A stretch of DNA of 64,000 nucleotides from an uncultured Planctomycetaceae bacterium (GTDB lineage: Bacteria > Planctomycetota > Phycisphaerae > SM23-33): NCBI GenBank assembly GCA_964417755.1, contig CAYQJH010000002.1, positions 2,693 through 66,692 of the forward strand. Direction: 5' to 3'. The translations under genes and the position numbers were made by a program. Positions 1 through 64,000 of this stretch are shown here, piece by piece. Below the pieces are notes generated by a model. The model was not told the origin of the DNA and ran no database searches. It saw nothing but the letters and a program-made list of their open reading frames with translations. The stretch's first letter is position 1, and each line of letters starts with the position of its first letter.

Positions 1-94
1 ATAGATGAAGTCTCCTTGCGTTTGTCGTTCACTTCGATATTGGGAGTTCCCTGTTGGATATTCTGCGGTTCGTCGTGCATCCTTTGTTCTTGAC

Positions 95-2926: not shown

Positions 2927-2944
2927 GGTGTTCCCTTTCAAACG

Positions 2945-3290
2945 ACAGGCTAGAGGCTACAGACTTCAGGCTACAGGAGCGGCAACGATAACGGCAGGCT
3001 CCGGGCTTCGGGCTTCAGGCGCGGCAACAACAACAACGGCAACAACGGCAACGGCAATGACGGCCGAACAGCAAAACAACAAAACGGCAACGGCTGCAGG
3101 CGGGACGCCTGCACCACAAGAACGGCAACGGCAACAGCAACGCAACAGCAAGAAGGCCTGCGGAGCCATGGCGATAGCAGACAATGGCTGGCAATGATTT
3201 GTCAATAGCTTCTCTTTGCGTTCTCTGTGGCTCTGTGAGTCTGTGGCTCTGTGGCTCTGTAGTTCTGTGCTCAGCTGTTCTGAGACTCAG
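2945..3290. repeat. Complex repeat-rich divergent intergenic region: C-family element (GGCTACAGACTTCAGG...), (GGCAAC/AACGGC)n hexamer tracts, and 8-mer (GCTCTGTG)n tandem
   Basis: Direct reading. Hexamer tracts span about 3010-3178 and five or more 8-mer copies sit at 3216-3262. Related copies at 32547-32637 and 47120-47212. Confidence 0.7.
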
Positions 3291-3336
3291 CGGCGGATGT
3301 TTGTGTTATAATGCCAGCGTTGTCACGAGGAACATC

Positions 3337-4302
3337 ATGAGAACTATCATCATCGGCGGCAGCGGGCATATCGGCAGCTATCTCGTGCCGATGCTCCTGG
3401 AGGCTGGCCATCACGTCATCAATGTCAGTCGCCAGACGTCCCGTCCTTACCGTGCGGCTGCAATGTGGCGCGAGGTAGAGTCCATCGTCCTGGACCGCCG
3501 CAGCGAGGACCAGGCTGGCACGTTTGGCCGGACTATTGCCAAGCTCCAGGCTGATATCGTCATCGATAATATTTGTTTCACGCCGGAAAGTTGCCGGCTG
3601 ATCGTGGAGGCGCTGGCTGGGAGTGTGCGGCATTTCCTGATGACCGGCACCGTCTGGGTGCACGGCCCGGCGGAGTCCATCCCTACGAAAGAAGATGCCG
3701 TCCGCAAGCCCATCGGCGAGTACGGAATCAATAAGAACGCCATCGAGCAGTACCTGATAGACTTCTCCTGCCGCACGGGCTTCCCAGCCACGGTGCTTCA
3801 TCCTGGGCACATCGTCGGGCCGGGCTGGGTGTGCATCAATCCGCAGGGCGGCGCGAACCTGGAGGTCTTCCAGACCATTGCCGGCGGCAGGGAACTGACG
3901 TTGCCCAACTTCGGCCTGGAGACGCTGCACCACGTGCATGCCGAGGATGTTGCGCAAGGCTTCATTAAGGCCATCCAGCGGCCTAGCGCTTCCATTGGTG
4001 AATCGTTCCACGTGGTCTCGGAGGCAGCACTGACGCTTCGCGGCTATGCGGAGGCTGCCTATCGCTGGTTTGGCCACCAGCCGCGACTGAGGTTCATGCC
4101 GGCAGGCGAACTGGCGAAGCTGCTTACAGAGACAGACGCGACCGACATGATGGAACACATCAGCCGAAGCCCGTGTGCCAGCATCGAAAAGGCCCGCCGC
4201 CTGCTGGACTACCAGCCCAGGCACACTTCTCTTCAGGCCTGCCGCGAGGCGGTGGCCTGGATGATTCAGCACGGAAAGATTCGTGGGCAGATGGTGGATT
4301 AG
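3337..4302 (+). CDS. NAD-dependent epimerase/dehydratase (SDR family)
   Basis: ATG at 3337 gives MRTIIIGGSGHIGSYLV, a Rossmann GxxGxxG start. The ORF 5' extension runs through the tandem-repeat region and is not coding. Confidence 0.75.
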   Translation: MRTIIIGGSGHIGSYLVPMLLEAGHHVINVSRQTSRPYRAAAMWREVESIVLDRRSEDQAGTFGRTIAKLQADIVIDNICFTPESCRLIVEALAGSVRHFLMTGTVWVHGPAESIPTKEDAVRKPIGEYGINKNAIEQYLIDFSCRTGFPATVLHPGHIVGPGWVCINPQGGANLEVFQTIAGGRELTLPNFGLETLHHVHAEDVAQGFIKAIQRPSASIGESFHVVSEAALTLRGYAEAAYRWFGHQPRLRFMPAGELAKLLTETDATDMMEHISRSPCASIEKARRLLDYQPRHTSLQACREAVAWMIQHGKIRGQMVD

Positions 4303-8893: not shown

Positions 8894-10060
8894 ATGACGA
8901 CCATTGAGATTCTATCAGAGTTCCATCGATTTTACCAGCGCCCAGCCGACGGCCTTTCTCAAGCGCCCGGGCGGGTGAACCTCATCGGCGAACACACCGA
9001 CTATAACGGCGGTTTCGTGCTGCCCATCGCCATCGAGAAGAACACCCAGGCAGCCTTCGCGAGCCGAACCGATCGCATGGTTCGTTTGGCCTCGCTTCAG
9101 GCGGCCGGTCAGGCGGTGGAAGTGCCGCTGGATAAGAGCGTGCAACTGGGCGAGCCTAAGTGGGGCAATTACTGCAAAGGCGTCGTTGCTGAACTGCTTA
9201 AGGCCGGCATTGAACTTTGCGGCGCGGACATCCTCATCTCAAGCGATGTGCCGCTGGGCGGGGGCCTGTCGTCCTCAGCTTCGCTGGAGGTGGCGCTGGC
9301 GATGGCCTTGCTGGAACTTGCCGGCCGGGCCGGCAGCTTGCCGCCGAACGAATTGGCCCTTCTGTGCCAGCGGGCGGAAAACCTCTATGCGATGGCTCCG
9401 TGCGGCATAATGGACCAGTCGATAGCGGCGATGGCGCGCCCCGGCCATGCGCTGCTGATGGATTGCCGCTCCGGCCAGACGCAGCAGATTCCCTTCGACG
9501 ATCCGCGGGTGGTGCTGCTGGTGGCTGACACGCAGGTCAAGCACGCCATCGGCGACGGCGGGTATGGCGCGCGCCGCAGGCAATGCGCGGAGGCAGCCGA
9601 GATTCTTGGCTTATCTTCCCTTCGCGATGCTACGCCGCAGATGCTGGCCAAAGCGCAGGCAGACAGGCTGCTGGATGACAAGCAACTCATGCGGGCGCGG
9701 CACGTTATCGGCGAGATTCAGCGGACGCAGCAGGCCGTCGAGGCCCTTCAGGCCGGCCGATATGATGAGTTTGGCCAGTTGATGTATCAATCGCACAAGT
9801 CTCTGGCAAATGACTTCGAGGTCAGTTGCGTTGAATTGGATTGTATTGTTGAATTGGCTAGCCAGTTGCCGGGCGTATACGGCGCGAGGATGACCGGCGG
9901 CGGCTTCGGCGGCTGCGCGATCGTTCTCGCGCAGGCCGGACAGTCCCAGGGCATCGCTGATGCGGTTGCGGGAGGATTTGCATTGCGTTTTGGCCGGCGC
10001 TGCCCGATCTTCGCCACGCGAGCGGCGACGGGGGCATCGGCTGAGCGAATTGGCGGATAG
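8894..10060 (+). CDS. galK: Galactokinase
   Basis: GalK signature PGRVNLIGEHTDYNGG and GHMP motif PLGGGLSSSASLEVA. Confidence 0.85.
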   Translation: MTTIEILSEFHRFYQRPADGLSQAPGRVNLIGEHTDYNGGFVLPIAIEKNTQAAFASRTDRMVRLASLQAAGQAVEVPLDKSVQLGEPKWGNYCKGVVAELLKAGIELCGADILISSDVPLGGGLSSSASLEVALAMALLELAGRAGSLPPNELALLCQRAENLYAMAPCGIMDQSIAAMARPGHALLMDCRSGQTQQIPFDDPRVVLLVADTQVKHAIGDGGYGARRRQCAEAAEILGLSSLRDATPQMLAKAQADRLLDDKQLMRARHVIGEIQRTQQAVEALQAGRYDEFGQLMYQSHKSLANDFEVSCVELDCIVELASQLPGVYGARMTGGGFGGCAIVLAQAGQSQGIADAVAGGFALRFGRRCPIFATRAATGASAERIGG

Positions 10061-10084: not shown

Positions 10085-10205
10085 GCGCCGTGGTTTGGAA
10101 GCCTGGTGCCGTGGTTTGCGAAGCCGGAGGCGAAGCAACCACGTCTTCGGGATTGTGCAGGCCAGCGTGGTTGCTCCCGCTGCGCGTCCGCAAACCACGG
10201 CACAA
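10085..10205. repeat. Dispersed repeat, CCGTGGTTTGCG...CAAACCACGGC subfamily, with an internal tandem duplication
   Basis: Near-identical copy at 12215-12332 and a partial copy at about 50120-50200. Confidence 0.75.
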
Positions 10206-10327
10206 GCTATTCGCAACACTGGCAAGCAGCAGTTGCTATGCCGAAATAGGCTCCCTGATATTGTGGTTGCAGGCGCGGCCGCTATACTTCTTCAGTTGTT
10301 GACGCGCATCAAGAGAAAGGAAGACAC

Positions 10328-12214: not shown

Positions 12215-12332
12215 CCGTCGTGGTTGGCGAAGTTGGCGCCGTGGTTTGCGAAGCCGGAGGCTAAGCAACCACGTCTTTGGCATATGCAGGTCACCGTGGT
12301 TGCTTCCGCTGTGCGTCCGCAAACCACGGCAC
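12215..12332. repeat. Dispersed repeat (copy of the 10085-10205 element)
   Basis: GCCGTGGTTTGCGAAGCCGGAGGCtAAGCAACCACG...CCGCTGtGCGTCCGCAAACCACGGCAC. Confidence 0.75.
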
Positions 12333-12417
12333 CGGCAGGACGAAAATGTGGACACGCGCACGGCAGGAGAGTTACTCTGGCAGCGAGTCGGCGAATCTGG
12401 TAGACTCTGGAAGCCCT

Positions 12418-12462
12418 CTGCGTAAGCAGGGGGATCCCCGCCTTCCGGCGGGGGCTTCCAGT
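12418..12462. repeat. B-family hairpin repeat (CCCGCCTTCCGGCGGGGGCTTCC)
   Basis: Other copies at 21934-21985, 31127-31180, 43842-43900 and 59031-59092. Confidence 0.7.
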
Positions 12463-12532
12463 TGTTGCTTTTCAGGCCGGACGTGTTGGTCCGCAGGTCT
12501 GGAACCTGCGCCACAACTATCGGAGACGAAAC

Positions 12533-13666: not shown

Positions 13667-13840
13667 TGACGAATGACGAAGCCCGAATGATGGGCCCTGC
13701 TCTGCGAAGCCCGCTTCGCAGGGCGAAGCAGAGTCAATGGCGAATGCCTGGAAATGACGAAGTGAACTTGTTCGTCACTCGTCATTCAGGTATTGATTCG
13801 ACATTCTGGTTTCGTCATTCGTCATTCTTTAGCAGAAATA
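13667..13840. repeat. Cluster of GAATG(A/G)CGAA / TTCGTCATTC half-sites around a hairpin
   Basis: At least four copies in both orientations. Related clusters at 1141-1170 and 35512-35561. Confidence 0.6.
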
Positions 13841-13858
13841 ACAAGAATCAGAACCATT

Positions 13859-15748
13859 ATGAACAATGAGAACATCCCCGTCCGCATCTATTCCGATTCA
13901 CAAGCAGCATCCAGGGCGGTGGCAGAGGCCATCGCTGAACTGATTCGCGCCCGCCAGGCAGCCGGCAAGACGGTGGTGCTGGGCCTGGCAACCGGCCATA
14001 CGCCGGTCAATGTTTACCGCGAACTGATCCGCATGCATCGCCAGGAGAAGCTGGACTTCTCCAACGTCATTACGTTCAACCTGGACGAATATTGGCCCAT
14101 AGCGCACAACGCATTCCAGGCCTACCACGTCTGGATGCATGAGAATTTCTTCAAGCACGTAAACATCCCGGCCGCCAATATCCACATGCCATCAGGCGAG
14201 GTTGCAGCCAAGGACGTCGAGGCCTCGTGCCGGGCGTACGACCAGGCCATCGCCAAGGCCGGAGGGATCGACTTCCAGATCCTGGGCATCGGGCGAAGCG
14301 GGCATGTTGGCTTCAACGAGCCCGGCTCGCCATACGACAGCGCGACCCGCCGCGTCCACCTGGACGCCCTGACCCGCAAGGACGCCGCGAGCGATTTCTT
14401 CGGCGAAGACAACGTGCCGGAGATGGCCATCACAATGGGCCTGGGCACCATTCTGCAAGCCAGGCGGATCGTCCTGCTGGCCTTCGGCGAGCACAAGGCC
14501 CCGATCATCCGGCGGGCGGTCGAGGGTGAAGTCTCGATCAATGTGCCAGCCAGCTTCCTGCAGGAACATCCCGGCGCAACGATGTATCTCGACTGTGCAG
14601 CTGCCGCCGACCTGACCCGCGTGGCAACCCCTTGGCTGCTGGGGCCATGCCAGTGGGACGACATGCTGCAACGGCAGGCTGTCATCTGGCTGGCAAAGAA
14701 ACTCGCCAAGCCCATCCTCAAGCTCACCGACGAAGACTACAACGAGAACGGCCTGAGCGAGCTGACGCACGCATGCGGCGGGGCGTACCAGCTGAACATC
14801 CGGATATTCCGCCGGATGATGGAGACCATCACCGGCTGGCCAGGCGGAAAGAAGAAGAAATACCGCGTGCTGGTCTTCAGCCCCCACCCGGACGACGACG
14901 TGATTTGCATGGCCGGCACGATGACAAGGCTGGTCGAGCAGGGCCACCAGGTGCATGCCGCCTACATGGTCAGCGGGTATCTCAGCGTGTTCGACCACGA
15001 CGTCTCGCGATTCGCGGAATTTGTCCGTGAGTTCAATCGCATCTTCGGGCTGACACCGGACCAGACCGCAGCCATCGAGGATCATATAGAGAAGTTCCTG
15101 CGACAGAAGAGGCCGGGCGATATCGACTCCGCCGAGGTTCAGCAGATCAAGGCGCTGATTCGCCGCACGGAGGCCGTCGCGGCGGCGAAGTATTGCGGCC
15201 TGAAGGAAGAGCACTGCCACTTCCTGGACATGCCTTTCTACAACACGGGCAAGGTCGAGAAGCTCTCGATTGCCGAGGAAGATATCGCTGCCGTCGGCCG
15301 TAGTCTCGATGCGGTGCGCCCGGAGATCATCTTTGCCGCCGGCGACATGTCCGACCCGCACGGCACGCACCGCCTGTGCCTTGATGCCGCCCTGGCGGCC
15401 ATCGAACGGTACGCAAAGGCCGGCAACCCTAGGCCGGAGGTTTGGCTGTATCGCGGGGCCTGGCAGGAATGGCCCGGCGAGCAGATAGAGATGGCTGTGC
15501 CGCTCTCGCCTGACGAACTGCGGCGCAAACGCTACGCAATCTTTCGCCATCAGAGCCAGAAGGACCGGGCGATGTTCCCGGGCGCATACGACACGCGTGA
15601 ATTCTGGCAGCGGGCTGAAGACCGCAACATGGGCACAGCCAAGCTCTTCGACCAGATGGGCCTGCCGGAATACCACGCCCTGGAAGCATTCGCCCGGCAT
15701 CCGGTCAGACCATCGGCGCACGTGGCGTCGCTGATTACCCCTGCATAA
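13859..15748 (+). CDS. nagB: Glucosamine-6-phosphate deaminase (NagB) fused to a PIG-L/LmbE-like deacetylase domain
   Basis: N-terminal domain LGLATGHTP...FNLDEYW is NagB-like. C-terminal domain VLVFSPHPDDDVIC is the LmbE/PIG-L zinc-deacetylase motif. ATG at 13859. Confidence 0.8.
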   Translation: MNNENIPVRIYSDSQAASRAVAEAIAELIRARQAAGKTVVLGLATGHTPVNVYRELIRMHRQEKLDFSNVITFNLDEYWPIAHNAFQAYHVWMHENFFKHVNIPAANIHMPSGEVAAKDVEASCRAYDQAIAKAGGIDFQILGIGRSGHVGFNEPGSPYDSATRRVHLDALTRKDAASDFFGEDNVPEMAITMGLGTILQARRIVLLAFGEHKAPIIRRAVEGEVSINVPASFLQEHPGATMYLDCAAAADLTRVATPWLLGPCQWDDMLQRQAVIWLAKKLAKPILKLTDEDYNENGLSELTHACGGAYQLNIRIFRRMMETITGWPGGKKKKYRVLVFSPHPDDDVICMAGTMTRLVEQGHQVHAAYMVSGYLSVFDHDVSRFAEFVREFNRIFGLTPDQTAAIEDHIEKFLRQKRPGDIDSAEVQQIKALIRRTEAVAAAKYCGLKEEHCHFLDMPFYNTGKVEKLSIAEEDIAAVGRSLDAVRPEIIFAAGDMSDPHGTHRLCLDAALAAIERYAKAGNPRPEVWLYRGAWQEWPGEQIEMAVPLSPDELRRKRYAIFRHQSQKDRAMFPGAYDTREFWQRAEDRNMGTAKLFDQMGLPEYHALEAFARHPVRPSAHVASLITPA

Positions 15749-15754
15749 AGAGGT

Positions 15755-15868
15755 GCCGTTTCCTTCGATATTGCGGTTTCTTGTTGGACATTCGCTATTC
15801 AACTGTCGGCCCTTAACCGCAGAATATCCAACAATAGAACCGCAGAATATCGAAGTGAAAGAGACCGC
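15755..15868. repeat. D-family repeat, inverted pair (TTCCTTCGATATTCTGCGGTTCTATTGTTGGATATTCGATATTC)
   Basis: Forward copy at 15755-15800 and reverse copy at 15815-15868. Further copies at 1-80, 15996-16055 and 63115-63290. Confidence 0.75.
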
Positions 15869-15995
15869 CATTGATTCAGGAAACAGATGAATTGATCGCC
15901 ATATTTGTGGCCAGCACAAGGACGGCGTCCAAAGCCAAAGCATAATCCATGTCCGACGCAGCCCGCTTTGCCGAGGGACGTGACGGGAGCGTTGC

Positions 15996-16055
15996 TATGC
16001 CGTTTCCTTCGATATTCTGCGGTTCTATTGTTGGATATTCGATATTCTCTGTTCC
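15996..16055. repeat. D-family repeat (forward copy)
   Basis: Near-identical to the 15755-15800 copy. Confidence 0.75.
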
Positions 16056-16120
16056 ATTGTTTTGGTTGCTCTTGTCGGCCAGCTTGCACTAATATCTGCT
16101 CCGAAAGGATAAGAACGATT

Positions 16121-16930
16121 ATGGACAAAGCTGTAATTCTGGCGCGTGGCCTGGGCACGCGGATGCGTAAGCAGGATGGCTCGGCCAACTTGACGCAGCA
16201 GCAGGCAGCCATCGCCGAGACTGGCGTCAAGGCCCTCATTCCCGTCGCCGGCGGGACGTTCCTGGACTATGTGCTGGCTGCCCTGGCCGAGGCCGGCTAT
16301 AGCCAGGTCTGCCTGGTGATTGGCCCCGAGCACGTCGAGACGCGCGATTACTACAGCCGCCTGCAAACTAGCCGGCTTAAGATCAGCTTTGCCATCCAGG
16401 AAAAGCCGCTGGGCACCGCCGACGCGGTGGCGGCCGCAGCGGGCTTCACCGGCAAGGACCACTTCCTGGTGATCAACTCCGACAATTACTATCCGCCGGT
16501 GGCACTGAAGGGCCTGCGACAGCTTAAGGGCCCGGGCCTGGCTGGGTTCGAGAAGAACGGAATGCTGGCCGGCAGCAACATCCCCGCCGACCGGATCGCC
16601 AAGTTCGCCGTCGTCCAAGTCAATGACAGCGGCAACATGGTCCGCATAATTGAAAAGCCCGATCCCGCTGTGCTGGCCGGTATGAAGGAGCCGGTCCTGG
16701 TCAGCATGAACTGCTGGCGGTTCAACGATTCGATCTACGAAGCCTGCCGAAACATCAAGCCCTCCCCACGCAACGAACTCGAGATCACCGACGCCGTGCA
16801 GTACACCATCGACAAGCTCGGCCAGAAATACGCCATCGTCGATGTCAAGGCGCCAGTTCTGGATCTCTCCAGCCGCAGCGACGTCGAGGCCGTCGTCGCC
16901 AAACTCAACGGCCTGGAGATCAGACTGTGA
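16121..16930 (+). CDS. Sugar-1-phosphate nucleotidyltransferase (GlmU-N/RmlA-like NTP-transferase)
   Basis: ILARGLGTRM matches the G-x-G-T-R nucleotide-binding motif, with a ~15-aa insert after it. RBS AAAGGATAAG. The ORF 5' extension is repeat DNA. Confidence 0.7.
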   Translation: MDKAVILARGLGTRMRKQDGSANLTQQQAAIAETGVKALIPVAGGTFLDYVLAALAEAGYSQVCLVIGPEHVETRDYYSRLQTSRLKISFAIQEKPLGTADAVAAAAGFTGKDHFLVINSDNYYPPVALKGLRQLKGPGLAGFEKNGMLAGSNIPADRIAKFAVVQVNDSGNMVRIIEKPDPAVLAGMKEPVLVSMNCWRFNDSIYEACRNIKPSPRNELEITDAVQYTIDKLGQKYAIVDVKAPVLDLSSRSDVEAVVAKLNGLEIRL

Positions 16931-21504: not shown

Positions 21505-22148
21505 CACGCGAGCACAAAAAAAAGACCACAAGGCCATCAAGGTTCCCGTCAGTTTTCCGGACCCTTTCGGATCCTTCGGTTTCCGGTGTCCCTGATGACC
21601 CTTGTGATCTTAATCTAGTCTAGGCAGGCACCGCCCAAATTTCTTCTGCAACTGGAATTTTCTGCACTTTTTCTTCCACTGCTGCCATTTGAGACCGTCT
21701 GAATAACCTGCCGCAGAGACGCACAGGCCGCTGAGAACGTCAAGATCATTGATCTCTTCTCTCTGGCATGTTGATGCCGCCAAGACGGAGGATGCCATCC
21801 TCGCGCCGTTCTGGCTGTCCCATTTGTCGCAGGCGGCTCTCCATGGCTGAGGGCCCGCTCGTTATTGTGCTTGCCGTTGGCCCCATGGGGTAAACGCACC
21901 CTGGGCGACCAGCCGATCTTTGCTTTGAAGTCCCCTGCGTAAGCAGCGGGCCCCGCGCCTTCCGGCGGGGGCTTCCACTTGGTTCAACCAGTAAAAAAAA
22001 AACCACAGAGGCCTTTAAGGTTGTCGTATAGAGCTAATTGCTCTTTTCGATTTCCTTAATTGCCTCTGTGGCTTCTGAATTAACTATAGGCCGGCCCACG
22101 TGCGTTTTCATCTTTTCCTGGTGATTCATGTATTTCTTTCCCGCACTG

Positions 22149-22183: not shown

Positions 22184-22469
22184 GCCGTGCTAAGCGGGGC
22201 GCTAGCGGTGCCCTGACGGCCGAAAGGCCTGACCCGCAATCCGCTACAGCGGGGCTGAACGGTCCGCCGAGGGCCGCTGTTTGCAGGTTCCCTCGTCATG
22301 CGGGCGGTGTTGAAGGTTGGGTCCTCTGCAACGTTACGCCGTGAACCTGGTCAGGTCCGGAAGGAAGCAGCCATAAGCGACTTGTAACGTGTGCCGGAGG
22401 GTCACCTGGCTGGAGCCGTCTTCATGGCGATCCCTGTGAGCACGCGATTCGAAGCGGATCTGCACGGCT
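22184..22469 (+). ncRNA. ffs: Signal recognition particle RNA, long (Alu-domain, Bacillus-type) form
   Basis: Universal helix-8 sequence CCTGGTCAGGTCCGGAAGGAAGCAGCCATAAG at about 22345-22378. A 5' GCCGTGCTAAGCGGGG...GGTGCCCTG...CAATCCGCTACAGC Alu-like region. The 3' CGATTCGAAGCGGATCTGCACGGC pairs with the 5' GCCGTGC. A U-rich tract follows. Confidence 0.75.
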
Positions 22470-22522
22470 TTTCTTCACTCACGCACCAGAGTCCGACTTA
22501 CCGCGAACCAAAGGGGCCAATC

Positions 22523-24019
22523 ATGAACAGGCCGTTTACTCGGATGTATCTTCTGTCCATAGTTCTGGTCTGCGTACAAGCAGCCGATGCTGCCTCGCCG
22601 GCGACCGCAGCCGCCCCCACGGGCAGTCAATCGGCACAGACCGTCTACCCGACGCTGGAGGAGGCCGCCATCGCCGCCTGGCAATTCAGTGATCCTGATT
22701 TGCCTGCCGAATATTATGTCCACGGTCCGACAGAGGGCATGTTTGATCGGCCTGCGACTCTGAAGTTGATGAAGTCCAACGCATACGAGATATACAAGAC
22801 GCACGCCGATCTCAACGGCGACGGGGTTGACGAGGTGCTGATGGCCAATGGCCACTTCGTGAACAAGACTGGCAGAGAGTCGAGCTTCGATGGCGCTCAG
22901 AATCGCACTTGGGCAGTCCTTCAGAACACCCGGGGAGGTTGGCTTATCGTCGGAGCTGGTTTCGGTTCTCCCTGTCCGCCGGAGGTGCTCAAGGAATTAA
23001 CCAACGGCTGGAAGAACATTCGGAGCGGGCACCACCTGAGCGCCAGCAGTGGTGCCACATATCTATATGAATTCAATGGAATTCGATACAAACTGGTCAA
23101 GGAAACCGAGTATGGCCATTTGCCTACACGTCCTACCACCGGCCCTGCAACGCAGACGAGTAGTTCCCCAGCGAGCGTGCGATGGTCAAATGCCACAAAT
23201 GGCCTGAGGGCTCGAATTGAGGCAGGGCCATATCTTGCAAAGAGGTTGGGCAACCGAGTCGACGTGTATTTCGAGAACGTTTCTGATGAACCTTTTAGCC
23301 TTGATTTCGGCGAACTACAGGCGCTGTCATGGGCGGTCTTCGATGCCACAGGAAAGGACGTCAAACCCATAGCTGTGCAAAAGGCCGAGGCAGTCCCTGA
23401 CTGGCATTCGATTGCGCCCGGCCAGCAACTCGGTATGGTCCTGGGCAAGTCGGTGCAAAACCGCGACGGTCGCCTGCAGATCGGCGTCCACGAATGGAAA
23501 CTCCAGCCGGGCCGATATTCGATCCATTGCATGTTGGAGCTGCGATCAGACGCAGCGTCGAGGCCGGCTGGGCAAACACCGTGGAGCGGCCGGGTGGAAC
23601 TGCCGCCTGCGGAGTTTGAGGTCGTGGGGGAAGTCAGCGACGAGAACTTGATTGAAGCTGGTGAGCAAGTCCGCGCCGCCCATCCTGCCGGCGGTCTGGC
23701 CATGTGGCAGGCCCTGGCGGAACTGGTGCGTCCCGGCATGACGGTGCGGCAGATGTTCTTGGTTCTGCCAGCAAAGAAGATGACGCTGGAGGAAATGGGA
23801 GGGGCAGGCATCCTTTGGATGGGCGGCATCTTCTCGCTCAACTATCGGGTTGACGCTCTATGGTGCGTTGAAGCTGTCGGCGTGGGAGAAACTTCGGCCG
23901 GTTTGACCAACCCGTCCACGCAATCCCAGGCCATTGGCTTCGAGAATATGATCTTGACCCGTAAACCAGCAATAAAACCGGCGAAGGCTTCCATCGTTCC
24001 CGCCACGCAACCTGGCTAA
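22523..24019 (+). CDS. Secreted hypothetical protein
   Basis: ATG at 22523 gives a signal peptide MNRPFTRMYLLSIVLVCVQAADA. The upstream part of the track ORF overlaps the SRP RNA and is not coding. Confidence 0.55.
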   Translation: MNRPFTRMYLLSIVLVCVQAADAASPATAAAPTGSQSAQTVYPTLEEAAIAAWQFSDPDLPAEYYVHGPTEGMFDRPATLKLMKSNAYEIYKTHADLNGDGVDEVLMANGHFVNKTGRESSFDGAQNRTWAVLQNTRGGWLIVGAGFGSPCPPEVLKELTNGWKNIRSGHHLSASSGATYLYEFNGIRYKLVKETEYGHLPTRPTTGPATQTSSSPASVRWSNATNGLRARIEAGPYLAKRLGNRVDVYFENVSDEPFSLDFGELQALSWAVFDATGKDVKPIAVQKAEAVPDWHSIAPGQQLGMVLGKSVQNRDGRLQIGVHEWKLQPGRYSIHCMLELRSDAASRPAGQTPWSGRVELPPAEFEVVGEVSDENLIEAGEQVRAAHPAGGLAMWQALAELVRPGMTVRQMFLVLPAKKMTLEEMGGAGILWMGGIFSLNYRVDALWCVEAVGVGETSAGLTNPSTQSQAIGFENMILTRKPAIKPAKASIVPATQPG

Positions 24020-29761: not shown

Positions 29762-29782
29762 GAAGGCCCCAGGCTCTTTTGT

Positions 29783-29895
29783 GTGTCGCGGGCGTCTCGC
29801 CCGCGTGTACCGAGGGCATCCTGCCCTCGCTGCCTCCGACAATCCGCAGGCAAGACGCCTGCGGCACACGCGGGCAAGATGCCTGCGACACATGA
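29783..29895. repeat. A-family composite hairpin repeat (TGTCGCGGGCGTCTCGCCCGCG / GTACCGAGGGCATCCTGCCCTCG / CGGGCAAGATGCCCGCGACAC modules)
   Basis: Lies between pilB and pilT inside the pilus operon. More than 12 related copies across the window. Confidence 0.8.
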
Positions 29896-29961
29896 TTGCG
29901 CCGCAGGTTCGGGACCGGATGTTAGCGATATGCTTTCGCCGAACGAGACAAGCAAAGGAAT

Positions 29962-31116: not shown

Positions 31117-31314
31117 TTGCTGAAAGCCCCCACCGGAAGGTGGGGGACCCCCGCCTTCCGGCGAGGGCTTTCTGGGTGGCATGGCGGGCGATTTTCCCCG
31201 CCATGCTAGGCGAGTGTGCGACATGGCGGCAGCCGTCTCCCGCTACGCTCGCCGTGCCAAGAACGACGGCCGCCATGCCACCCGAACATGGGTGCAATTG
31301 CAGGATGCAAGACT

Positions 31315-32546: not shown

Positions 32547-32637
32547 GCAGGCTACAGGCTATAGGCTACAGACTTCAGGGACGGCAACGACAACGACAAC
32601 GGCAACAGCAGGCTCCCGGCTCCAGGAGCGGCAATGA
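32547..32637. repeat. C-family repeat with (GGCAAC)n tract
   Basis: GCAGGCTACAGGCTATAGGCTACAGACTTCAGGGACGGCAACGACAACGACAACGGCAAC. Homolog of the 2945-3180 element. Confidence 0.7.
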
Positions 32638-32777
32638 GAATGGCCAATCAGGAACATTCATGTTCTGACTCTTCAGGTCGTTCTTCGTGTCTTCGTGTCG
32701 TTGTGGTGAAAGTCGTTCAATCCGCAATCGCCGCAGAAGAATCTTATATTTCATGCAGTGGAACAAAGAGGTAGTTG

Positions 32778-40138: not shown

Positions 40139-40752
40139 GTCGTAGCTCCACCTTTGTTGAGGGTCCCAGAGGCACTCACCTTCCGAACTATAATACCATC
40201 CCGCGCCTCAAGCACAATCATCGTCCACCCATACTCGCCCGGAAGGACACAGCCGGAGAATGATGGCATACCCCCGGCGTGATTCCTTCTGCTTCTGTCC
40301 GTGAAGCATGGCTCTCGACCTGAGCTGCATCTGCTTGCATGCAAAAACATAATCTTTGTGGCGTCAAGGGCTTGTGGTTTAGGCACCTGTTCAGTTCTGT
40401 TCAGTTCTGTACGATTCCATTCGATTTTGCCCCGGTTTTTGCGCATCTGAGCCGTCTTTGTTGTCATTCTTATTGCTCCGAGCGAACCATGAATATCCAC
40501 GTCTGCGCCGTGGCGACTGCATGGCCAGCGAACTCTCCGCGCACCCCATTAGCGCATCGCGCCCTCTCTTGTGCGCGCAAAGATGGTCAAGAAACGCGCA
40601 GGCTGGCCATAAGTCCTTGGCTGGAGCAAAGAAGAATATTATCGCAAGAGCTATTTCATGTTCCTAAATGGGATCGATATTTGCGCAGCAAGTGGGTCAA
40701 AGGCGTGCTAAGAATGCCTGGAACTGCATCAGCACAAGTTGGCTGCTTTTCG

Positions 40753-40910
40753 TGTCGCGGGCGTCTCGCCCGCGTGTACCGAGGGCATCCTGCCCTCGCG
40801 TTTCTCAACGAACCGCAGGCCAGACGCCTGCGGCGCGTGGGCAAGCTCGTGCTACGTAGCGAGCCACTTCGCGGAGTAGCAATGCCCGCGAAATGTAGCA
40901 GCCCGCGGGA
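40753..40910. repeat. A-family composite repeat, long copy including the GCTACGTAGCGAGC hairpin module
   Basis: Nearly identical over ~70 nt to the 29783 copy. Confidence 0.8.
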
Positions 40911-43924: not shown

Positions 43925-44008
43925 CTGTGTCGCGGGCGCGTGCGCCCGCGCGGGCAAGCTCGTGCTACGTAGCGAGCTACTTCGCTAAGTGGCAATGCCC
44001 GCGACACG
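43925..44008. repeat. A-family repeat
   Basis: TGTCGCGGGCGCGTGCGCCCGCGCGGGCAAGCTCGTGCTACGTAGCGAGCTACTTCGC...GCCCGCGACACG. Confidence 0.75.
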
Positions 44009-44032
44009 TTTTCATACAGGCTCTTACGGAAG

Positions 44033-46778: not shown

Positions 46779-46832
46779 CTGTCGCGGGCGAGACGCCCGC
46801 GGTACGCGCGGGCGAGATGCCCGCGACACAGG
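46779..46832. repeat. A-family repeat in the thrS 5' leader
   Basis: TGTCGCGGGCGAGACGCCCGCGGTACGCGCGGGCGAGATGCCCGCGACAC. Confidence 0.75.
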
Positions 46833-47119
46833 TGCACGCACAAAAAGAAAACCGGCACATGACGTTGCCCAGGACTCGCCTGCTCTTGCAGGCGCACGAC
46901 GACGGCCACCGCGGGATATGCCGCAGCGGCCTAACATGTCGTCGTAGTCAAACGAGTCTTTGGCATCGCTCATGCACCGGCTGAACTACACTTCGGCTTA
47001 ATGTTACCAGTATAGCCTATCGGCAAAGTGCCCAAAGTCAATGCAATTTGAGAGTAAACAAATCGCCGCTGAGCCGCTGAGGTCGCAGAGAGAAGCATCG
47101 CTTCTGATCAGTAATCTGA

Positions 47120-47212
47120 TCCTCTCTCTGCGTTCTCAGCGTCTCAGCGGCCGCTGTTGTTGCTTCTTCTGTCGTTCCTGAAGCCTGAAGTCCGGAGCCT
47201 GAAACCCGCCGC
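47120..47212. repeat. C-family repeat (reverse orientation) 3' of glgP
   Basis: Reverse complement is GCGGCGGGTTTCAGGCTCCGGACTTCAGGCTTCAGGAACGACAGAAGAAGCAACAACAGCGGC. Confidence 0.6.
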
Positions 47213-47214
47213 TT

Positions 47215-50021: not shown

Positions 50022-50268
50022 GTGGCGCGGGCATCCCGCCCGCGAATATCGCGGACCTCTCGTGCGCAGGTCGTTCCAGCAGGCAGTTTCGTGCTGGTAG
50101 CGAATGCCGCGGTTTGCGAAACCCGAAGGGATGAAGCCACGCTGCGGCCAAGCGTGGTTACTTCGCTTCGCTCCGTAAACCACGGCACCCCGCCTGCGGT
50201 TTGTTGTGAAGACGCGAGGGCAGGATGCCCTCGGTACGCGCGGGCAAGACGCCCGCGACACGCAAAGC
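50022..50268. repeat. A-family composite repeat (long copy, includes the CCGTGGTTTGCG module)
   Basis: GCGCGGGCATCCCGCCCGCG ... GTAAACCACGGCAC ... GAGGGCAGGATGCCCTCGGTACGCGCGGGCAAGACGCCCGCGACACG. Confidence 0.75.
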
Positions 50269-50599
50269 GGCCGCCGTTCCATCGATAACGAAGCTCAAGC
50301 GTAGAATGAATGAGGCAGGCGAATCAGGCCGATAAGAGTCTGTAAGGCTTGCCGTTAGTGAGAGCCAAATGCAAAGGCGGAATATGTTTGCCAGAAAATC
50401 GTCGTCTCGGGCATCTTCGGTTCGCCGGGCGCGAAGGCGCCCGCGAGGAGCGTCGTTCGCGCAAGCGCTATGGAGAAAGCTGCCTCGAACCGATAAAATA
50501 GAGGACTGTGGGAAAGAACCCCGCAACCCAGCAAGGTAAGGGCGGGCTGCACACGGTTAGTGCGTGGCGCCGGCCTGGCTCCAAAGAGGTGCGAGCAGA

Positions 50600-53293: not shown

Positions 53294-54889
<1,596 letters not shown>

Positions 54890-57702: not shown

Positions 57703-57862
57703 GCAGTTTTGTGGTGCAGGCGTCTCGCCATCGTGTACCGAGGGCATTGCTACTGTGCGAAGTAGCTTCGCTACGTAGCACGAGCTTGCTCTCGCGATTT
57801 ACGAGCAGAACCGCAGGCGAGACGCCTGCGACACACGCGGGCAAGATGCCCGCGACACATAA
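57703..57862. repeat. A-family composite repeat
   Basis: GTGGTGCAGGCGTCTCGCC...GCTACGTAGCACGAGC...GCAGGCGAGACGCCTGCGACACACGCGGGCAAGATGCCCGCGACAC. Confidence 0.8.
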
Positions 57863-57895
57863 CTGCGGCGTGCTGCTGGCGAAGCTCGCGGTGCT

Positions 57896-61470: not shown

Positions 61471-61545
61471 CAGACGTCTGGCCTGCGTATACGAGGGCAG
61501 GATGCCCTCGGTACACGCGGGCGAGACGCCCGCGACACATAAAAC
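61471..61545. repeat. A-family repeat
   Basis: CGTATACGAGGGCAGGATGCCCTCGGTACACGCGGGCGAGACGCCCGCGACAC. Confidence 0.8.
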
Positions 61546-61614
61546 AGCCAAGTTGCGATGTGACACTAGCCGATTAGTTTGAAGTCGCGCGCAAGTTCAA
61601 GGGTGAGCACTGAA

Positions 61615-63108
61615 ATGGGAAGAACGACGTTCATCGTCTTTCTGCTGCTGGCTGGGCTGGCTGGCTGCGGGCCTGCATCGTCGGACCTTCCAGCCGACAT
61701 GCAGGCCTATGAAGCCCTTCAGCGCTCCGGCGGGCAGGCATATTCTCAACACGTGATTCTGTTGCACAATCTTCAGCGCGTGCTCGACGGCGACCTCAAG
61801 CCCGCCCAGCGAACCGCGTCGCTGGAGGTGGTGGTCTTCCTCGGCGGCGACGCCCCCGGCATTCGCAGCCAGTTGGCGTCCATGCTTCGCGATCCAGCCG
61901 CTCCGCCGGAGGTGCGGCAGGGCATATTGAGTTTCCTGCTGCGGAAGGACTACCCCGACCTGGCCGGCCATGTCGTCCAGGCCATGCCGCAATTGCAGAG
62001 GGATTCTGCCCTGCATAATTCCGTGATGGAATGGCTTAATCGTCATCCCACCGGCAGCGTGCTGTCGGAAGTCGTAGCCTTGTGGGCGTCCGAGCCAGCC
62101 ATCACCGGTCCGGGCGAAGATCGCTATCGCATGGTCATCGAGAGGATGACCGGGCGGATGTGGCAGGACGCCTTGTTGAATGCCATCAACACGCCGGACT
62201 TCACCGCCAGCGGCCAGGCTGTCGAGGTGCTCTTCAGGCGATTGGGCAAGCAGGCGCTTCGCACGCAACTTGAGCGGCTGGCCCCGCAGGCGCAAAGCTT
62301 GCGGCTGCTGCAGATGTTCCTTTTGCGATTCGAGTACATGCCCGAGACGGCCCAGGAATATGAATGCATTGTTCAGGCCGCCGGCAGCGGCCCGGCTGCG
62401 GTGGACGACACAGCCCGCCTGGCCGTGGGATGGAACGAAGAGGGCTATCGCTTCAACATCCGCGACCTGCACCTGCTGAGCCGCCTGGCCGGCGACCCGC
62501 TGCGTCGGCCGATGCGGCGATCGCAACTGCTGGCAGAGGTCGGGCAGGCGATCAACCCGCTTCAGCACGCCAGATCGCAGGCTGCCGCGGGCCAGAAGGA
62601 CGACCGCTTCTGGATGCGGGTGGATGCCCTTAGCATGGCCGACCTTTGGAACCTCAAGCTGCTGCATGAGTTTCTCTCGCGCCAGCGGACGCACATCGCC
62701 CTGGGCAAGATTGCCGCGGAGGATCGCAAGGATACCTCCGCCGCCTATGGCGGGCTGATCTTCTATCGGGCCGGGCAGGCTGAAGGGACGCAATATCCGC
62801 CCCAATCGCAGTCGGGCAATGACCTGGCCTACGTGCCCAAGCTCAAGGGCAAGTACGGCAACAAGGAGTACGACTTCCTCAAGGAGCAGAGAAATTCGCT
62901 ATGCCGGTTCATCTGCCACTTTGAAAAAGCGGCCAACGCCACCAAGTGCGGGCCGACGGCTGAGGAACTCAAGGACGCCGAAGAAGGCAACTACTACGGC
63001 CTGGTGCTGACGAGCCTGGGCGAGGAAACGATGGCTGCGCACTACTTCAATCCCACCGGCGAGGTCATTTCGCTGGGGATATATCCGCTCGCGATATCGG
63101 GAAAGTAA
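61615..63108 (+). CDS. Hypothetical lipoprotein (~498 aa)
   Basis: Signal peptide plus lipobox MGRTTFIVFLLLAGLAGC. Confidence 0.5.
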   Translation: MGRTTFIVFLLLAGLAGCGPASSDLPADMQAYEALQRSGGQAYSQHVILLHNLQRVLDGDLKPAQRTASLEVVVFLGGDAPGIRSQLASMLRDPAAPPEVRQGILSFLLRKDYPDLAGHVVQAMPQLQRDSALHNSVMEWLNRHPTGSVLSEVVALWASEPAITGPGEDRYRMVIERMTGRMWQDALLNAINTPDFTASGQAVEVLFRRLGKQALRTQLERLAPQAQSLRLLQMFLLRFEYMPETAQEYECIVQAAGSGPAAVDDTARLAVGWNEEGYRFNIRDLHLLSRLAGDPLRRPMRRSQLLAEVGQAINPLQHARSQAAAGQKDDRFWMRVDALSMADLWNLKLLHEFLSRQRTHIALGKIAAEDRKDTSAAYGGLIFYRAGQAEGTQYPPQSQSGNDLAYVPKLKGKYGNKEYDFLKEQRNSLCRFICHFEKAANATKCGPTAEELKDAEEGNYYGLVLTSLGEETMAAHYFNPTGEVISLGIYPLAISGK

Positions 63109-63114
63109 GCGGCT

Positions 63115-63290
63115 ACGACGAACAGCAGAATATCGAACAAGGATCTACGAATCTCGAAGTGAACGACAGGGCATCCGTTGTTCATGCCTCTGTTGTTGTC
63201 GTGTGGTTCACTTGGATATTCTGCTGTGCGCGCGCGTGAATAGGCCTTTCTTGTTGGATATTCGATATTCGCTGTTTCGGCTGTCCTCAT
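63115..63290. repeat. D-family repeat cluster (inverted copies) in a convergent intergenic spacer
   Basis: GAACAGCAGAATATCGAACAAGG ... CACTTGGATATTCTGCTGTGCG ... CTTGTTGGATATTCGATATTCGCTGTTTCGG. Confidence 0.7.
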
Positions 63291-63893: not shown

Positions 63894-63928
63894 TACACGC
63901 CTCGATCCTTCCTGAGTCATTCTAGCGT

Positions 63929-63975
63929 GGCACGGACATCCTGTCCGTGCGTCTCATGGGCGTCTCGCCCATGTT
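63929..63975. repeat. A-family hairpin pair
   Basis: GGCACGGACATCCTGTCCGTGC + GTCTCATGGGCGTCTCGCCCATG. Confidence 0.6.
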
Positions 63976-64000
63976 TCTTTTGCTGTCGTTGCCGTAGCCT

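Follow-up and report, generated by a model that had tools for sequence, protein, structure and literature searches.

Paired intergenic repeats in a planctomycete genome as probable relics of small four-helix-bundle cassettes of the intervening-sequence type

The window analyzed here, a 64,000-nucleotide stretch of an uncultured Planctomycetaceae genome, carries six copies of a repeat unit of ~45–55 nt, termed the D family, at three intergenic loci; all of the copies lie between genes. Aligning the six copies yielded 23 invariant columns and the consensus gTTCACTTCGATATTCTGCGGTTCcTTGTTGGATATTC, which is followed by either GATATTC or TGCGGTT. With up to two mismatches, TTGTTGGATATTC was matched six times compared to 0.5 expected matches, and 0 of 100 shuffles contained as many; GATATTCTGCGGTT with up to three mismatches gave ten matches (3.7 expected), and GATATTC occurs 21 times in the window (3.3 expected). 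The GC content of the units (40–48%) differs from that of the window (61%). The units show a 7-nt period of the form NNNNTTC, phase-7 TTC arrays are present in the window, and each arm can be described as about five degenerate heptamers. The copies that the initial annotation had placed at 1–80, 15755–15868, 15996–16055 and 63115–63290 all exist, comprise these six units and lie far above chance. Its statement that each copy carries two to three GATATTC repeats holds for units C, D and F, whereas A and E have one exact GATATTC each and B has none.

Unit A (23–76, plus strand) is one arm of a gene-less inverted pair located between the asd stop codon (95) and the following minus-strand gene. 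Its partner, A′, lies just past the left edge of the window and was seen at 1135–1190 of another contig (L023), which encodes an identical asd protein; the two arms align at about 79%. Unit B (15754–15803, plus strand), a solo arm of the right-arm type, directly follows the stop codon (15748) of a NagB/PIG-L gene and forms a hairpin with unit C (15812–15863, minus strand). C is the left (5′) arm of a decayed cassette and is homologous to the region around the Shine-Dalgarno sequence and ATG of four-helix-bundle (4HB) genes, with ATA at the position equivalent to the ATG. The right (3′) arm of the same cassette is unit D (16000–16050, plus strand), which ends 70 nt upstream of the ATG (16121) of an NTP-transferase gene and is 100% complementary to C over 34 nt. 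Unit E (63115–63168, minus strand) and unit F (63202–63280, plus strand) are the left and right arms of a gene-less pair between two convergent genes with stop codons at 63108 and 63291. E is 87% complementary to A over 54 nt and, once a ~20-nt GC-rich insert at about 63227–63246 is removed from F, ~75% identical to F in a local alignment of ~50 nt. The inverted pairs noted initially are confirmed, but they are of two kinds: B/C is arranged head-out (-> <-), whereas E/F, like A/A′ and C/D, has the opposite arrangement (<- ->). Across the pairs, arm-to-arm identity ranges from 75 to 97%.

A gene-less sister element, to which no strand is assigned, was found at 13667–13830, between the stop codon of a MalK-like gene (13666) and the true start of the NagB/PIG-L gene (13859). 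It was uncovered by the strict regular expression (TTC N4–5)x4, which matched at 13797–13827 and which missed the D units because of their central TTGTTGG. The left arm of the sister element consists of AATGACG/GAATGAC heptads, the right arm is of the GTCATTC type, and the two meet at an inner junction that reads ATGACGAAGTGAAC-ttg-GTTCGTCAC. A GC-rich hairpin is nested in the left arm at about 13696–13741; together with the insert in arm F (63227–63246), it suggests that the heptad arms are themselves targets of another small repeat. Overall, five elements of about 110–300 bp each, small, multi-copy and with inverted ends, are found within 64 kb.

Several open reading frames run into these elements, as the initial annotation had correctly recognized when it described artefactual 5′ extensions. 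ORF 15905–16930 crosses unit D and has its true start at 16121, and ORF 13793–15748 carries a spurious 5′ extension upstream of its true start at 13859; both starts were set by orthologues. Searching the whole window against Rfam at the gathering threshold left the repeats unmatched and returned an SRP RNA as the sole match, and a search of 15700–16130 with E-values up to 10 gave no match. A literature search with the repeat sequence strings returned nothing relevant.

The window also contains features of other kinds. The SRP RNA is of the bacterial large type (RF01854, 157 bits) and lies at 22185–22467 on the plus strand, where it overlaps the spurious start of ORF 22391–24019. A separate and abundant family of GC-rich double-hairpin repeats (GTGTCGCGGGCGTCTCGCCCGCGTGTACCGAGGGCATCCTGCCCTCG) occurs in both orientations at 29772–29903, 40741–40834, 46782–46841, 50214–50273, 54037–54168, 57707–57870, 61491–61560 and 63925–63978, with shorter relatives (TGCAGGCGAGACGCCTGCACCACAA) at 3095, 5438, 7329, 37724, 42691 and 58962. 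Three further families of intergenic hairpin repeats were observed: GAAGCCC..CTGCGTAAGCAGGGGG..CCGCCTTCCGGCGGGGGCTTC (12410–12464, 21927–21981 and 31123–31177), inverted sets of CGTGGTTTGCGAAGCCGGAGGCGAAGCAACCACG (10086–10206 and 12216–12333) and a 63-nt pair (40834–40896 and 43947–44009). Repeats of the CTACAGACTTCAGGCT type followed by GGCAAC/AACAAC runs are located at 2940–3140, 32562–32644 and 47170–47214, and an 8-nt tandem CTCTGTGG array at 3223–3269 coincides with the start of ORF 3184–4302.

Next, we compared the NagB/PIG-L to NTP-transferase spacer with that of relatives, whose synteny was taken via a protein database. By its NTP-transferase, the source organism is related to Phycisphaerae. 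In the window this spacer measures 372 nt and holds B, C, a gene remnant and D. In three relatives (NTP-transferase identity 71–73%) it measures 0–11 nt, so that the genes overlap or nearly do, and in the closest relative, L025 (79%), it measures about 140 nt and contains no D units. As the spacers of the relatives are short and free of units, the window elements are insertions, and one of them splits an operon junction. No D-family unit was present in about 55 kb of DNA from relatives, and scanning metagenome contigs for close relatives gave one locus only, which was 24% identical. The L025 spacer has a short heptad-like run, GATTTTCGATTTTCGTTTCGTTC, at about 9925–9950, which may be a relic in this very position that has decayed much further. 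Inspection of five elements by eye revealed no convincing target-site duplication; none is visible at the window elements or at two loci from other genomes (L030 and L040). No exact empty site by which the ends could be fixed was found.

The nature of the inserted material became apparent from a Thermoguttaceae sequence (L007), in which an array of units adjoins an ORF of 129 amino acids. The encoded protein belongs to PF05635 (“23S rRNA intervening-sequence protein”, E 6.8e-16) and to the four-helix-bundle family TIGR02436 (E 7.9e-26), and is related to PDB 2RLD. Using this protein as a tblastn query, we obtained a match in the window at 15859–15939, which falls between C and D; it shares 67% identity with the C-terminal 27 residues (95–121) of the query (E 2.8e-6). 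An hmmsearch with a profile of 120 family sequences detected the same remnant at profile positions 98–122 (E 1.8e-6). The remnant (15859–15945, plus strand) comprises the final 28 codons plus the stop codon of a PF05635/TIGR02436 gene, KRPPLIQETDELIAIFVASTRTASKAKA*, and, having no start codon, is a pseudogene. It is the only 4HB fragment of the window; of the five elements, just one retains 4HB sequence.

Intact cassettes of about 430–450 bp were found in Brocadia, in a member of the Desulfobacterales and in a groundwater planctomycete. In their left arm, GAATATCGAACAAGGAAnnnnGA-ATGTCGAAGG, lie the start codon and Shine-Dalgarno sequence of the PF05635/TIGR02436 (“S23p”) gene, and their right arm, TAA-TTCGAAATTCCTTGTTCGATATTCGATATTC, begins with its stop codon. 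The Desulfobacterales cassette reads GAATGTCCAATATCGAACAAGGAATAATGA-ATGTCGAAGG ... TAA-TTCGAAATTCTTTGTTCGATATTCGATATTC, and its left arm is made up of the heptamers GAATGTC CAATATC GAACAAG GAATAAT GAATGTC directly upstream of the ORF start. The units of the window match these gene flanks base for base: C, E and reverse-A correspond to the left arm and have a mutated ATG (ATA or ATC), and the right arm is matched by D, F, A′ and B. Considering five independent 4HB contexts (L030–39 from Brocadia, L040–49 from Desulfobacterales, L052–61, L062–71 and L050/51), a reversed D-type unit lies over the 4HB ATG in all five; a forward unit is located at the stop codon in three of them and about 35 nt past it in a fourth. 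Identity within this 4HB subfamily is 70–83% across Planctomycetota, Syntrophales and Desulfobacterales. In the contexts examined, the gene between homologous arms was always a 4HB gene and never a transposase.

Brocadia also provides a natural gene-less copy (L030, 2566–2640), in which the first ~6 and the last ~3 codons are kept between the arms. Since these terminal codons are retained, gene-less pairs arise from full cassettes by internal deletion and not the reverse. This copy and its full cassette are situated in a Candidatus Brocadia region (L030, 1865–3095) between cas2 and cas6/RT-cas1; the region has a periodic structure of 595 nt, each period being headed by a 36–42 nt sequence, GTCTGAAAGGACATTCCTAC.GGTAGGAACTGAAAC, that resembles a degenerate CRISPR repeat. 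Gene-less arm pairs were also observed in tandem arrays, with a period of about 125 nt in a contig labelled Owenweeksia (L005, 1–760) and of about 110 nt in the Thermoguttaceae sequence (L007, 4190–4560).

An exact 22-base motif of the family was present in 21 stretches from 20 genomes, whose MAG labels span at least eight phylum-level groups; the GC content of the DNA ranges from 37 to 66%. A species-specific repeat is thereby ruled out. The groups carrying the motif include Pirellulales, Phycisphaerae, Thermoguttaceae, Bacteroidota, Desulfobacterales, Nitrospiraceae and Rhodothermales. Near these 21 loci, tblastn detected a 4HB gene only at L007, so that the link to 4HB genes is made by arm homology alone for most copies. 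Ten candidate small ORFs near motif loci were read by eye; none was 4HB-like, and several were repeat-derived or low-complexity artefacts. The cassettes of Desulfobacterales and Brocadia are 78.6% identical at the nucleotide level, and the former has 38% GC within a context of 49% GC. This cross-group identity and GC contrast point to horizontal transfer. Viral contigs contained no copy of the D motif or of the 5′ arm/ATG motif, and there is consequently no evidence for a phage vector.

To assess the potential structures of the elements, we folded them in silico. The stretch 15749–16120 folds with −130.3 kcal/mol (z −5.0), and its C/D stem of 34 perfect pairs encloses the gene remnant. Comparable z-scores were obtained for B/C (−44.7 to −51.2 kcal/mol, z about −5) and A/A′ (−53.6 kcal/mol, z −4.6), while E/F was marginal (−61.3 kcal/mol, z −2.0). 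Single units of either strand folded no better than shuffles (z −0.4 to +0.3). A strand-specific G–U hairpin within one unit was rejected as well, as shuffles fold equally well. Scans for sigma-70-like promoter and intrinsic terminator consensus sequences at two loci yielded nothing, and in most contexts examined the 4HB gene is co-directional with its neighbours; the cassettes are therefore probably transcribed by read-through.

Taken together, we consider the D-family units to be the inverted terminal arms of small selfish 4HB cassettes of the intervening-sequence (IVS) type, all copies in the window being defective. We assign a probability of about 75% to this reading. C–remnant–D would be a cassette decayed to its last 28 codons; A/A′, E/F and the element at 13667–13830 would have lost the gene by internal deletion, and B would be a solo arm. 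A read-through transcript could fold the arms into a long stem, which, by analogy with rRNA intervening sequences, is a predicted RNase III substrate. The effect on the host would then be mRNA cleavage or altered stability and not operator control. The cassettes encode no transposase, and the 4HB protein, their sole product, is to our knowledge not a known recombinase; it is described as small, pentameric and Avd-like.

The closest parallel to such cassettes is found in S23p-type intervening sequences, which are known in Leptospira, Coxiella, Xanthomonas and Brucella (Warrier et al. 2016, PMC4990558). In Coxiella, the 23S rRNA IVS measures 428 nt and contains an S23p ORF; RNase III cuts the stem formed by its inverted repeats, and two to three heptameric GACAGAT repeats lie a short way upstream of the ATG (PMC4990558). 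The cassettes share with it the PF05635/TIGR02436 protein in the loop, the size (428 nt compared to about 430–450 bp), the inverted repeats forming a stem, the heptamers immediately upstream of the ATG, an ORF prone to decay and a sporadic occurrence that reflects horizontal transfer. In contrast, the elements of the window reside between protein-coding genes and so lack one of the defining traits of an IVS, a position within 23S rRNA at helix 25 or 45; their heptamers follow the degenerate form NNNNTTC instead of GACAGAT, four of the five are gene-less, and their processing by RNase III is only predicted. PF05635 has also been discussed for the Avd protein of diversity-generating retroelements (PMC10053308). 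The cassette protein falls into the same four-helix-bundle superfamily as Avd, but the cassettes examined have neither a reverse transcriptase nor a template/variable repeat pair. REP/BIME elements of proteobacteria resemble the window elements in being intergenic, in alternating orientation, in forming hairpins upon read-through and in often lying at gene 3′ ends or between the genes of an operon. However, the D unit is not a palindrome and lacks a GTAG head, and we saw no RAYT transposase associated with the elements.

Heptameric repeats of another kind are the cyanobacterial STRR sequences, CCCCAAT and others, reportedly described by Mazel in 1990, and CCCCAAT arrays were found to flank a 4HB gene (L074). 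STRR-like heptamers and the window units have in common the 7-nt period, the intergenic position, frequent convergent pairs and a patchy distribution across phyla, but the window units are not perfect head-to-tail tandem repeats. We extended the view to distant 4HB genes on plasmids of Nostoc, Planktothrix, Dolichospermum, Pseudanabaena, Aulosira and a member of the Chloroflexota (about 40% protein identity). All nine of these genes (9/9) are flanked by inverted tandem-heptamer arrays, with an array upstream and its reverse complement downstream, and at least six heptamer types occur: AAATTCA, GTAATTC, GGAGGTC, CCCCAAT/CGTAAAT, ATGAAGG and a TTCTTCC-like type. The lag-7 self-match of the flanks is 16–21 of 21; 400 random 129-nt samples of the window, in which unit loci were not scored directly, reached a maximum of 17 of 21. 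Scores of left arms against reverse-complemented right arms averaged 26 on the diagonal and 12.5 off the diagonal. High scores were confined to arms of one cassette type, and comparisons between types stayed at background; the two arms therefore co-vary, which speaks against a single host protein that would read one fixed sequence everywhere. The co-variation is better explained by selection for pairing or by a cassette protein that recognizes the arms of its own cassette. Plasmid cassettes (L073–L079) often lie inside defence or mobility islands: one is situated between DISARM drmD and BREX pglX (L074), two follow a helicase-related gene (L073 and L075), in L073 with an N6-methylase thereafter, and others neighbour cas1 (L076), XisH (L079) or an integrase (L078).

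Other explanations of the window repeats have to be weighed against the cassette reading. Heptameric intergenic repeats are abundant and often convergently paired in several groups, including Xanthomonas (GGGAATC), Nostoc (GGGGAYT; PMC4692102), Beggiatoaceae (TAACTGA), Cyanobacteria and Bacteroidetes (PMC4679880); these arrays occur without 4HB genes, and neither paper reports a 4HB link (PMC4692102, PMC4679880). We found no literature linking heptamer repeats to 4HB genes, although it may exist beyond the literature searched. The units could be heptamer repeats generated by slippage and spreading alone, with 4HB genes merely landing or being retained between arrays, and most D-type loci indeed have no 4HB gene. 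We consider this improbable: in independent phyla the left arm contains the Shine-Dalgarno sequence and ATG, and the right arm is at the stop codon; gene-less copies keep terminal gene codons, and the window units are degenerate, non-tandem and ~90% conserved across phyla, a pattern not expected from local slippage. The initial annotation had proposed a MITE-like family, and this stands in so far as the elements are short, inverted, gene-less, multi-copy and absent from relatives; they are, however, arms of 4HB cassettes with no transposase of their own. An ordinary MITE family, that is, a non-autonomous derivative of an insertion sequence moved in trans by a transposase recognizing the arms, would match the small, multi-copy, intergenic inverted pairs, the internal-deletion derivatives, the insertion polymorphism relative to relatives and the tandem gene-less arrays of L005 and L007. 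Against it, the parent 4HB element encodes no recognizable transposase, only 4HB genes and never a transposase were found between homologous arms, we saw no target-site duplication at the window elements, L030 and L040, and B/C has its arms the other way round from the other pairs, so that we hold it to be quite improbable.

The other initial proposal, a protein-binding array, finds no support as far as host regulation is concerned. In such a scheme the units would serve as tandem half-sites for a nucleoid protein or transcription factor with control over the genes on either side. The short direct sub-repeats, spaced 7 and 23 nt apart, are reminiscent of iterated operators such as the heptad arrays to which the omega repressor binds, and one gene starts 70 nt downstream of D. 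Yet the sites are not conserved at orthologous positions, as the corresponding spacers of the four relatives (L025–L028) lack units while the flanking proteins are 62–80% identical. The flanking genes are unrelated in function, orientation and distance to gene starts vary, with one pair between convergent genes, an operon junction is split, the scans at two loci gave no promoter or terminator signal, and the identical sequence recurs in at least eight phylum-level groups. Operator control by the host is thus very improbable. A Rho rut-site, a ladder of cold-shock-protein sites and an operator like that of the omega repressor were also considered, and were set aside in view of the cassette homology. 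That the repeats are coding, either as peptide modules (RYSAVLLLDIRYS...) or as fragments of one duplicated gene, has a negligible probability in our assessment. ORFs do run through units in several frames and one locus holds a gene fragment, but the period is 7 nt and not 3, the copies occupy either strand and various frames, orthologues place the true gene starts downstream of the units, and a protein-family match exists only at 15859–15945. With regard to the initial question of whether the copies are part of a gene that is coding in other genomes, this stretch is such a fragment and the left arm overlaps a start codon elsewhere, while the repeats are mostly non-coding flanks.

The repeats of the window are dead or gene-less relics of IVS-type 4HB cassettes outside rRNA, and in this sense MITE-type debris. 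In this genome, dead insertions explain four intergenic loci, and the starts of several genes were revised. For the host, the 372-nt insert has parted two genes whose counterparts in relatives are translationally coupled or close to it, and places a 34-bp perfect duplex into the transcript of a sugar-nucleotide operon, which may have changed the expression of this operon. More widely, 4HB genes between inverted heptamer arrays are found in at least six phylum-level groups, leaving gene-less hairpin relics behind. This ties together two puzzles that are decades old: where rRNA intervening sequences come from and how they move, and what the excess of heptamer repeats in bacteria signifies. As a speculative extension, which we regard as possible though on balance doubtful, there could be one widespread and so far unrecognized class of mobile cassettes, ranging from Planctomycetota to Cyanobacteria, Chloroflexota and Desulfobacterota, of which rRNA intervening sequences would be a special case and which would also explain many repeats of the STRR/GGGAATC type. 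The pentameric Avd-like 4HB protein might then bind its own arms with one protomer per heptamer (~5) and act in spread or RNA processing. If true, one protomer per heptamer would account for the co-variation of arm and reverse complement between cassette types.
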